DNA of 64,000 bases, taken from NCBI GenBank assembly GCA_951406725.2, contig OX597835.1:12896001-12960000 (forward strand). Reading direction: 5' to 3'. How positions within the stretch are numbered: the stretch's first letter is position 1; the number at the start of each line of letters is the position of its first letter. Shown here piece by piece: positions 14,702-60,922 of this stretch. The position numbers and the translations under genes were made by a program. The notes under the pieces are model-generated. The model worked only from the letters and a program-made list of their open reading frames with translations. It searched no databases and was not told the origin of the DNA. The stretch is from Octopus vulgaris. Its lineage: Eukaryota.

Positions 14702-14749
<48 letters not shown>

Positions 14750-14804
14750 GAAATATTAAAATTACGAATTCTCTATAATAGAGATTGCAGCAGCGTTTAC
14801 TGGA

Positions 14805-15097
14805 AATTAATTGTTATCGCCATATTAATATGGCATTCTTATAGAAATAAGAATAATCGCTGCTGCTGGTCAGCTCCATGAGGCCACCGCCATCAAGATA
14901 GCAATACCCCGAAACGCGTCTGTAGCTGTCGGACTGGCAGTGTGAAGCGGCTGACCTCCCTTGTTCGAAGGTTATAATGGATACAGTCGTGTATCAATAG
15001 CTATCTTGATGGCGGTGGCCTCATGGAGCTGACCAGCAGCAGCGATTATTCTTATTTCTATAAGAATGCCATATTAATATGGCGATAACAATTAATT
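14805..15097. repeat. 98-bp inverted repeat with 97-nt spacer, embedded between (TA)n tracts
   Basis: 14805-14902 is the reverse complement of 15000-15097; spacer starts AATACCCCGAAACGCGTCTGTAGCTG. Confidence 0.9.
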
Positions 15098-19845: not shown

Positions 19846-19892
19846 AGACATAGGTTACATATATCATTGAATTAAAGAATAGGAATACTAGA

Positions 19893-20680
19893 ATAATAGT
19901 TGTATACTGTCAACTTAACGTGACAGTAGGGGATTACACCACCGCTGTTTAGCCCTAGGAAGCATCAAATGCTCCCTGTTGGCTCCGACACATTTCCTGT
20001 GTCCTTATATATTTACGAAGGGGAGACAAATATCCCCAACAGCTAGGCCTGCATCTAGAGACACATATGTTTCAGGGTCTTTGTCCATCATCGGTCTAGA
20101 GTAGCAAAAGCCAGCTAGCTGCAGATATCTGTCCCGACTTCGTGGCTGTGTGGTAAGTAACTTGCTAACCAACCACATGGTTCTGGGTTCAATCCCACTG
20201 CGTGGCATCTTGGGCAAGTGTCTTCTGCTATAGCCCCGGGCCGACCAATGCCTTGTGAGTGGATTTGGTAGACGGAAACTGGAAGAAGCCTGTCGTATAT
20301 ATGTATATGTATATATGTATGTGTGTGTGTGTGTTTGTGTGTCTGTGTTTGTCCCCCTAGCATTGCTTGACAACCAATGCTTGTGTGTGTTTACGTCCCC
20401 GTCACTTAGCGGTTCGGCAGAAGAGACTGATAGAATAAGTACTGGGCTTACAAAAGAATAAGTCCTGGGGTCGATTTCCCCGACTAAAGGCGGTGCTCCA
20501 GCATGGCCGCAGTCAAATGACTGAAACAAGTAAAAGAGAGAAAAAGAGAAAAAGAGAGTATCTAATTTTCAGTGAAGTATATTCACTGATCACCAAAATC
20601 AGAAATATTAAATTTCTAAATATCTCATAGAGATATGTACGGTGGTGGGGTGATATAATAGTTGTATACTGTCAACTTAA
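19893..20680. mobile_element. Unclassified structured ~350-bp element with a 26-bp terminal direct repeat, interrupted by a SINE
   Basis: ATAATAGTTGTATACTGTCAACTTAA at 19893-19918 and 20655-20680; architecture shared with 54177-54538. Confidence 0.6.
20142..20558 (+). mobile_element. tRNA-derived SINE family A (probably of the octopus OK/OR type)
   Basis: GTGGCTGTGTGGTAAG A-box, GGTTCAATCCC B-box, CTTGGGCAAGTG CORE-like motif, central (GT)n, AAACAAGTAAAAGAG tail. Confidence 0.85.
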
Positions 20681-21162
20681 TTCTGAATACTAGAATAAAA
20701 ATATTAGAATACAGAAGAGTTATACAGGAACATTAGAATATTAGAATAGTTATATAGAATACCAGAATGTAGAAATATCAACTATTCCAGTGAAGTGTGA
20801 AGATGCTAAATTCTCATACACACATATATATATTGTTTAATTATGTATAATCATTATATTTAAGTATGCAAAAGTAATTTTATGATATTGACCTCATATA
20901 AGAAATGCGTTGAACAGGTTGCCAAGAAATATTGATTGAATATTTCGGTTTTGTGTGTTGCGTCTTGGAAATATAGAAAACAATATCATGATGGCGTCAA
21001 GTTTGATGGAGCAGAAATGCCAAGTGTCAGTTGTAGTCAGAGAAAAGAGACTGGCTTACCTTGTGTCCACTGTATACATACATACACACATACATACATA
21101 CGTACATACAAACATACATACGTACATACATGCATGCATACATACATACATACATACATACA

Positions 21163-21340: not shown

Positions 21341-21399
21341 ATTCCACTGATGAAGGCAGAGCATTTCTTATGCAGAACCAGAAATTCAGGATCTGGAAT
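21341..21399 (+). ncRNA. Type I hammerhead motif with AUC cleavage triplet
   Basis: ATTCCA-CTGATGA-AGG..GCAT(ttctt)ATGC..CCA-GAAAT-TCAGG-ATC-TGGAAT; 6-bp stem I, imperfect stem II base. Confidence 0.6.
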
Positions 21400-54176: not shown

Positions 54177-54538
54177 CATTGGTGTAATGTAAAGTATACT
54201 AGCCATCTCAATATGGCTAACCACTAAGGGTGCGTATTATTGTAGCTTGTAGCCCCAGGAGATCATCGTCTCCAGCTGGCTTTAAGACACACTTTCTGTG
54301 CCCTTATGGTATTTGCAAAGGTAGGTCATCCCTCTCTCGTAAACCTAAGTGACACGCACGGACTGCAGTTTCTAGGTATTTGCCTGTCTTCGGCGTACGG
54401 CAGTCACCGGTTTACGATGAAAGGGAGACCTGTTTGCAAATACTTATAGGTTTTTCTAGTAACTTCCGTCACTGATTTCGAAAAACTGTCTGCAAGCAAT
54501 AATAAATCTCTGAATGAGATGTAACATTGGTGTAATGT
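54177..54538. mobile_element. Unclassified structured ~350-bp element with a 14-bp terminal direct repeat and a long rod hairpin
   Basis: CATTGGTGTAATGT at 54177 and 54525; rod 54309-54443. Confidence 0.65.
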
Positions 54539-60509: not shown

Positions 60510-60922
60510 TATGTATATTTTATTAATTTGCATGTATGTCTTATGCTCACAGCCACCAATGATGGTATCTTAAAAAACAGTATCGTTCTCATATTTATTT
60601 ATAAATAATTTCACATATTTCGTTTGTTTAAATTGCTGTTTGACCACTTCAAATGAATTTACAGGCATGGTAGGGGCAAATTCCAGTAGCTGTTCCTGGC
60701 AGATTTGGCTGAGGAGATTCAGGCACCATTTGTTGCTAAATTCGAAATCATGATATCAAATTAACCAGCATTCCTTTTGCAGACTTGGTGGAGGTAGAAT
60801 GCTAATCTTGTTCACTAAACTTAGTCCTATAATGCCTTTATTAATTTTGTGATTCTTCTGTGGCTTAGAAGTATTTTGACTTCTATTTCTAAAATGTTGT
60901 TGCCCATATAGTACCCTTGTAT

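Follow-up and report, generated by a model that had tools for sequence, protein, structure and literature searches.

A SINE-interrupted copy of a 355-nt probable non-LTR retrozyme family with a variant type I hammerhead core in the genome of Octopus vulgaris

Introduction

Non-LTR retrozymes are described as repeats of ~150-450 bp with a GC content below 50% and no ORF (PMC7229834). Their mobilization by Penelope-like elements (PLEs) has been proposed and is unproven. In the canonical pattern of animal type I hammerheads, helix I has 6 bp, helix II has 4 bp, and helix III is short and palindromic and acts as a dimer (PMC4209133), and among Xenopus retrozyme dimers eight out of nine showed no cleavage in vitro (bioRxiv 10.64898/2026.07.22.740005). 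The core change U4C "considerably decreases activity in vitro", and a natural viroid hammerhead carrying it is weak in vitro, yet sufficient for infectivity in vivo (PMC3088659). PLEs bearing an endonuclease leave a signature consisting of an optional tail, an inverted arm, a (TA)n bias, and short duplications (PMC8557442, PMC3846280).

Here, we analyzed a structured element within a 64,000-nucleotide stretch of contig OX597835.1 (assembly GCA_951406725.2, positions 12,896,001 to 12,960,000, forward strand), referred to as the window. The element is a SINE-interrupted, broken copy comprising 1.07 units of a 355-nt non-coding family, designated F1. The closest known system is the group of metazoan non-LTR retrozymes, especially the 350-390-bp repeats of mussels (PMC7229834). 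Like these, F1 and its sister families F2 to F5 have a non-coding unit of 354-360 nt with a GC content below 50% and one type I hammerhead per unit, occur in tandem copies, show duplications longer than 4 bp, and possess a predicted circular fold that is stable and branched, leaving the hammerhead free. Unlike the metazoan retrozymes as described there, the window families F1 and F2 carry the cores CCGAUGA or CCGAAGA together with a mismatch at position 10.1-11.1, and most of the sampled copies occur as dispersed 1-1.5-mers or inverted pairs instead of arrays.

A second set of likenesses leads to the Neptune PLEs and their pseudo-LTRs (pLTRs), with which the families share an optional 3' tail, a head-to-head inverted 5'-truncated arm and a preference for (TA)n (PMC4209133, PMC8557442, PMC3846280), as well as short duplications, a hammerhead located ~70-240 nt from the 3' end, and core variants such as U3-A8. 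In contrast to Neptune elements as described there, the unit lacks an ORF, its hammerhead belongs to the canonical long type (6-bp helix I, URY bulge, 6-7-nt loop II) and not to the minimal one, the tail spans 45-60 nt compared with 30-40 nt, and the PLE ends examined show no homology to the unit in sequence. MRC1 of Chlamydomonas likewise forms non-coding head-to-tail multicopy insertions mobilized in trans; derivatives of that type as a rule have a 3' end matching that of the autonomous partner (PMC8557442), whereas such a match was not found here. As animal retrozymes are already described, the unit does not represent a new kind of element, and we classify it as a non-LTR retrozyme with a variant core.

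Results and Discussion

The retrozyme copies of the window

The features of the window copies are compiled in Table 1. Every hairpin motif listed in the initial annotation was located at its given position in a sequence check, the 26-bp direct repeat proved to be exact, and the second copy was recovered by nhmmer at 54248-54519 (E 1.2e-7). The proposed unit of ~345-350 nt turned out to have a length of 355 nt. The SINE, of which close copies exist elsewhere in the window, extends over 20144-20558 rather than 20142-20558, with the GT at its left edge being common to SINE and element. The direct repeat had been read as element sequence and not as a host duplication; the first part of this statement holds, and a separate 14-bp duplication of host type flanks the element. 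Both window copies have duplications of 14 bp. Because its flank is of low complexity, the single duplication at the F1 copy is less secure than the family-wide count given below. Since it contains only one hammerhead and a SINE within its rod, the F1 copy of the window is likely dead.

Table 1. Coordinates of retrozyme-related features in the window (F1, F2, and F4 are repeat families)
Feature	Position	Strand	Remarks
Head-to-head inverted fragment pair, F4-related family	14744..15096	.	~82% to F4; between (TA)n tracts
Likely target-site duplication, left	19883..19896	+	14 bp; last 4 nt common with element end
F1 retrozyme, 3' part of RNA-sense copy	19893..20143	-	Unit positions 272 -> cut -> 164; 94% to F1 majority sequence; 3' end 164 nt beyond the cut, corresponding to the "short" preferred end
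26-nt terminal redundancy, copy A	19893..19918	-	Element sequence
Type I hammerhead motif	20054..20103	-	Predicted cut between 20060 and 20059
URY bulge	20103-20101	-	F1 window copy
Helix I	20100-20095 with 20059-20054	-	F1 window copy
Core CCGAUGA (U4C)	20094-20088	-	F1 window copy
Helix II	20087-20074	-	F1 window copy; one A·C mismatch
GAAA	20073-20070	-	F1 window copy
Helix III, self-complementary	20069-20062	-	F1 window copy
UC before the predicted cut	20061-20060	-	F1 window copy
5'-truncated SINE	20144..20558	+	Later insertion into AT run of the rod; 9 nt replaced
F1 retrozyme, 5' part of RNA-sense copy	20559..20680	-	Unit positions 141-262; 96% to F1 majority sequence
26-nt terminal redundancy, copy B	20655..20680	-	Copy went 26 nt beyond one full unit
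Likely target-site duplication, right	20685..20698	+	After 4 extra nt
Copy 2, sister family F2	54186..54524	-	Core CCGAAGA from 54393; C17 at 54361
Host duplication of copy 2	54177-54190 and 54525-54538		14 bp

A superfamily of 354-360-nt repeats

A search of the genome (2.80 Gb, 227 contigs) with the left part of the element yielded 53 matches among 40 scored candidates, and 93 matches were obtained with copy 2 as query; the first-look candidate counts of 2126, 2451, 2724, and 2195 are not copy numbers. At least four sister families of 354-360 nt were recognized, having a common fold and the hammerhead at the same place as F1. F1 and F2 are two 355-nt units that are 51% alike, and the flanks of family loci contained F3 (357 nt), F4 (360 nt), and F5, a single 354-nt dimer (L144). 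The longest ATG frame in the units of F1 to F4 encodes 56 aa, and their GC content ranges from 0.42 to 0.46. Units join head to tail, giving tandem copies with two or more hammerheads, and the tandem arrays for which the initial annotation had proposed a check are represented by a 10-unit F2 array (L171; G000:C4:13620758-13624367), the longest one found, besides the F1 multi-unit copy L008, the F4 tandem L097, and the F5 dimer. Retrozymes of different families and PLE fragments were observed to accumulate at the same (TA)n tracts (L115, positions 1-1870; L122; L144).

Minus-strand type I hammerhead motif with a variant core

According to the initial annotation the element lacked any known ribozyme core, implying a self-cleaving motif of another or new class. 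A type I hammerhead motif is located on the opposite, minus strand where the described rod ends, so that no new ribozyme class is needed. The window copy has the C3-G8 pair, G5 and A6, A9, G12, A13 and A14, the A15.1-U16.1 pair, and H17. U4 and the 10.1-11.1 pair are absent in F1 (C4, U·U) and F2 (C4, C·A); for this reason, the motif is filed as a variant core of putative activity. Both are present in F4, F5, and the variant of the F2 array, and a G10.1-C11.1 pair is absent in F1, F2, and F3, which are mismatched at this position. Points that speak against activity are the U4C change, this mismatch, the additional A·C within helix II of the window copy, and the lack of cleavage in most Xenopus retrozyme dimers.

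On the level of single pieces, the F1 core reads CCGAUGA in 28 out of 33 cases and CUGAUGA in two, with three broken or unparsed. The 37 F2 pieces are more diverse, showing CCGAAGA (15), CUGAAGA (5), UCGAAGA (3), UUGACAA (6, all of the array subfamily), and eight unparsed cores. F3 and F5 mostly share CUGACGA (13/20), and F4 has UUGAUAA in 20 of 21 pieces. The U4C change resembles the one of the natural viroid hammerhead cited in PMC3088659; unlike there, it is the majority state in the genomic animal repeat families described here (an exact 23-mer across the F1 core occurs 98 times with C4 versus 11 times with U4), and it is also found in a young autonomous element.

Throughout F1 to F5 and the F2 array subfamily, the hammerhead occupies the same place and strand and matches the canonical animal type I pattern (PMC4209133). 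Within these six families and subfamilies, helix I is paired in 35 out of 36 cells with two to three pair types per position, and position 3-8 is occupied by C-G in four cases and by U-A in two. Self-complementarity of helix III was seen in 7/7, and a URY bulge following helix I as well as a loop II of 6-7 nt recur in the families compared. In the F2 array variant, six core and closing positions differ together from the F2 majority while the core is still valid (UUGACAA, G10.1-C11.1).

A relaxed descriptor, composed after the motif had been seen, gave one match per monomer on a single strand in 4/4 monomers compared with 1-5 matches per 1000 shuffles. Scanning with Rfam detected no hammerhead in the window copy or in other F1 copies, the F1 tandem L008 included, and among the matches listed (150/189) for eight loci F5 alone scored, with 32.2 bits on RF00163 Hammerhead_1 (cut-off 34, E 7.9e-7). 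A second hammerhead motif follows in F5 at a distance of 354 nt. HDV-like, twister, pistol, and hatchet folds did not fit in an informal comparison by eye with their consensus features. A plus-strand CUGAUCA...GAAA look-alike near 20586 was discarded, being devoid of a 3-8 pair and helix I and not conserved in the sister families.

Fold of the whole monomer

The strong fold claimed for the element was confirmed on an intact F1 copy, the minus strand of which reached a z-score of -11.4 with 0 out of 100 shuffles folding as well. Circular folding of the F1 majority sequence resulted in z-scores of -10.1 for the minus and -7.9 for the plus strand. Read from the cut, the modeled circle consists of a long rod capped by the hammerhead and a branched domain of approximately six hairpins at its far end. 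RNAalifold analysis of the five monomers returned 74 pairs with 93% of the cells paired and 36 pairs with double-sided change, compared with 4-6 such pairs in slid-partner controls; because the five sequences scored had also served to predict the consensus structure, the covariation support is overstated by these numbers.

Insertion anatomy and proposed route of mobilization

In order to characterize the insertions, 78 loci were counted after removal of the query loci and of overlapping or duplicate ones (L001, L006, L024, L031, L040, L042, L049-L052, L054, L057, L079, L091, L107, and L171). The RNA 3' ends cluster in two windows approximately 50 nt apart: among the 113 outer 3' ends, 53 are located 158-180 nt and another 51 are located 213-238 nt beyond the cut, with nine elsewhere (104/113 within the two windows), and 31 out of 42 F1 pieces read through the cut. 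Both counts are biased upward, as the loci are top hits of queries that span the cut and have a preferred end as their start, and as the windows were defined post hoc. The 5' ends are variable and a fixed LTR pair is absent. The inverted pairs are without exception head-to-head with their 3' ends outward (35/35). A (TA)n tract follows 53 of 113 3' ends versus 9 of 42 5' ends, and 38 of the 77 loci with both flanks sit in (TA)n. Duplications of 10-15 bp were found at 15 out of 39 non-(TA)n loci versus 2 out of 1482 mismatched flank pairs. Taken together, the features of PLE-type insertion, i.e., optional 3' tail, inverted arm, (TA)n or AT-rich target, and short duplication, were all found.

Permuted ends, for which the initial annotation had proposed a test, are not freely present: the 3' end of the RNA is placed at either of two sites, and variation is confined to the 5' end. 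Fixed ends with host-derived duplications, which had been named there as speaking against a retrozyme, were encountered in part, namely in the form of 3' ends with preferred positions and of host duplications; both agree with target-primed insertion of Penelope type and do not refute a retrozyme. The suggested origin as a reverse-transcribed, highly paired, retrozyme-like copy of a circular or tandem RNA template is borne out by the wraps, the 10-unit array, and the covariation, which do not extend to circularity itself.

A repeat operating on DNA level, i.e., a satellite, MITE or Helitron-type element whose hairpins act in DNA and whose hammerhead is incidental, might be suspected from the many hairpins, the inverted pairs, and the tandem array. 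The ends are strand-specific, with a fixed 3' and a variable 5' side, and this polarity already refutes it to a large extent. The 10-15-bp duplications, a hammerhead core that covaries and is confined to one strand, and the absence of terminal inverted repeats of fixed type argue against it as well, and we regard this origin as highly improbable.

We consider it probable that the unit is a non-LTR retrozyme with a variant type I hammerhead that has spread as a self-cleaved, presumably circular RNA by means of a Neptune-type PLE. Tandem or over-length copies would be transcribed on the minus strand, and two hammerheads would pair via the self-complementary helix III and cut after UC, with the released monomer being ligated into a 355-nt circle. 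A Penelope endonuclease may then nick AT-rich or (TA)n DNA, whereupon reverse transcription would begin ~160-176 or 215-236 nt beyond the cut, at either of two sites, pass through the joined ends, and stop at a variable point. For the window copy, a stop 26 nt past one unit would have generated the terminal redundancy. The other target strand could often prime a second cDNA, giving rise to head-to-head pairs and 10-15-bp duplications.

Penelope mobilization is also conceivable from a linear, uncleaved read-through template of over-length or tandem copies, with the hammerheads of F1 and F2 being weak or vestigial and no circle being formed. Such a template would agree with U4C and the 10.1-11.1 mismatch in both families, and linear templates exist because many copies already exceed one unit (9/42 F1 and 19/39 F2 pieces). 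Partial-tandem PLEs provide a model for it. Naiad PLEs amplify without canonical hammerheads (PMC8557442), and a circle and a multimer are indistinguishable from DNA alone. Conversely, covariation of helices I-III and of the 3-8 pair extends over families with a likeness of only ~50%, pointing to selection on the hammerhead fold, and in the predicted circular fold the rod joins both cut ends. The near-identical 10-unit array is expected from copying round a circle, and unequal crossing-over could also give it. In light of this evidence, we judge the uncleaved linear template to be rather unlikely.

Neptune-type elements as candidate partners

Mobilization by a PLE is inferred from the insertion anatomy, with the Neptune type as candidate partner class. 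A search for GIY-YIG domains, in which the best 150 of 6136 candidates were scored, showed 29 out of 30 translated loci to resemble PLE C-termini, most of them with the CxxxxCxxC linker of Neptune type. Intact RT-GIY-YIG frames, 781 and 775 aa in length and with RT scores just below the Pfam cut-off, were found in two Neptune-type families; these possess hammerhead-like 3' ends and optional tails, and most of the inspected copies end in (TA)n. The main family (781 aa) is equipped with pLTRs and a UUGAUAA hammerhead. Its members L123-L128 show an upstream frame of up to 479 aa without clear Pfam match ahead of the RT-endonuclease frame. PLEs are usually described with a single frame.

The second family is very young, with 40/40 scored copies being identical over 301 nt and all residing on C1 (L155-L170). 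It forms 4271-bp head-to-tail tandems with frames of 454 and 775 aa, the former again being an additional frame besides that of the RT-endonuclease. Its core is CCGAAGA (U4C) with U·U at 10.1-11.1, and related copies have CUGAAGA. A tentative reading is that U4C combined with the 10.1-11.1 mismatch represents a working, damped hammerhead, dependent on a dimer or a protein, that is favored in two retrozyme families and a spreading Neptune element, and that the conserved six-hairpin domain serves as start signal for a telomerase-like Penelope RT at two fixed sites on the circular RNA. If true, this would offer a directly testable system for the retrotransposition of animal circular RNAs and would imply that standard CUGANGA searches overlook whole retrozyme families.

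A third, older Neptune-type family (L172-L196) has a hammerhead core with A3-U8. The last 11 letters of its tail are almost identical to those of the F4 tail, and the spacing between its two 3' ends is close to that seen in the retrozymes. It may be regarded as a candidate partner, and common AT-rich targeting could explain the likeness.

None of the Neptune-type ends examined has the hairpin domain of the retrozymes, and a four-family nhmmer profile matched only separate insertions in the PLE flanks, showing no homology of 3' ends among those compared, which may not cover every PLE family of the genome. A hairpin common to the tails of the main Neptune family and the retrozymes was dismissed as not significant (p 0.13-0.51; lowest of ten comparisons 0.047). 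One PLE match near a retrozyme locus (L115) was examined in detail and showed no direct join. This apparent head-to-head insertion chimeric between PLE and retrozyme was not counted because of a ~47-nt non-PLE spacer between the arms and the divergence of the PLE arm, which is at best 85-91% like its relatives. As neither hairpin domain, tail, nor chimera links the retrozymes to a Neptune family, PLE mobilization rests on the insertion anatomy.

These data also bear on the idea that the unit is the pLTR or 3' end of an unrecognized autonomous PLE and its copies are the 5'-truncated ends of that element. The features of pLTRs include each of the tail, the inversion, the (TA)n target, and the hammerhead, Xenopus retrozymes are reported to be homologous to pLTRs (bioRxiv 10.64898/2026.07.22.740005), and only a subset of the scored GIY-YIG candidates was inspected. 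Still, the copies wrap head-to-tail at 354-360 nt without continuing into a body, and the unit bears no resemblance to any PLE 3' end examined. A contiguous upstream RT-GIY-YIG ORF was not found, and where PLE protein matches occur in the vicinity (6 of the 93 retrozyme loci tested), they are located outside the units. An origin as the end of a larger PLE thus appears improbable to us.

F1 pieces were additionally present in contigs of three runs that we guessed to be RNA, often with loose ends beyond the tail end; these contigs are uninformative with respect to strand, ends, and circles.

Implications and further hammerhead motifs

The F1 to F5 families were not found described in the literature covered, in excerpt, on octopus and cephalopod retrozymes, Penelope elements, and U4C or CCGAUGA hammerheads; repeat databases and the supplement of PMC7229834, which may list cephalopods, are outside this scope. 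With the majority of copies having a non-canonical core, Rfam and CUGANGA descriptors miss the family, and similar families may consequently hide in other genomes. Five cores at one position of one superfamily constitute a natural mutational series for hammerhead biochemistry. The insertion anatomy, with two fixed start sites at a distance from the cut, copies reading through the cut, head-to-head pairs, and 10-15-bp duplications, represents genomic evidence for the proposed PLE mobilization of retrozymes, and the host genome has Neptune-type elements with intact frames and identical copies.

Several further repeats of the window were noted. Just left of copy 2, a 228-bp two-unit tandem (53706-54144) has the appearance of a SINE-type dimer; related pieces occur in other parts of the window. 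A plus-strand hammerhead motif at 21347-21393 with a canonical CUGAUGA core and a long helix II, located right of a (TA)n tract and 700 bp from the element, is probably the end of another PLE-type element. The hammerhead-like motif at 60709-60755 (plus strand; CUGAGGA core, weak helix II) may be due to chance. A minimal hammerhead-like motif with a CCGAUGA core at 42536-42565 (plus strand) lies within a 35-bp tandem/inverted arrangement (42452-42600), and L065 has a similar motif, representing a third repeat type with a U4C core.
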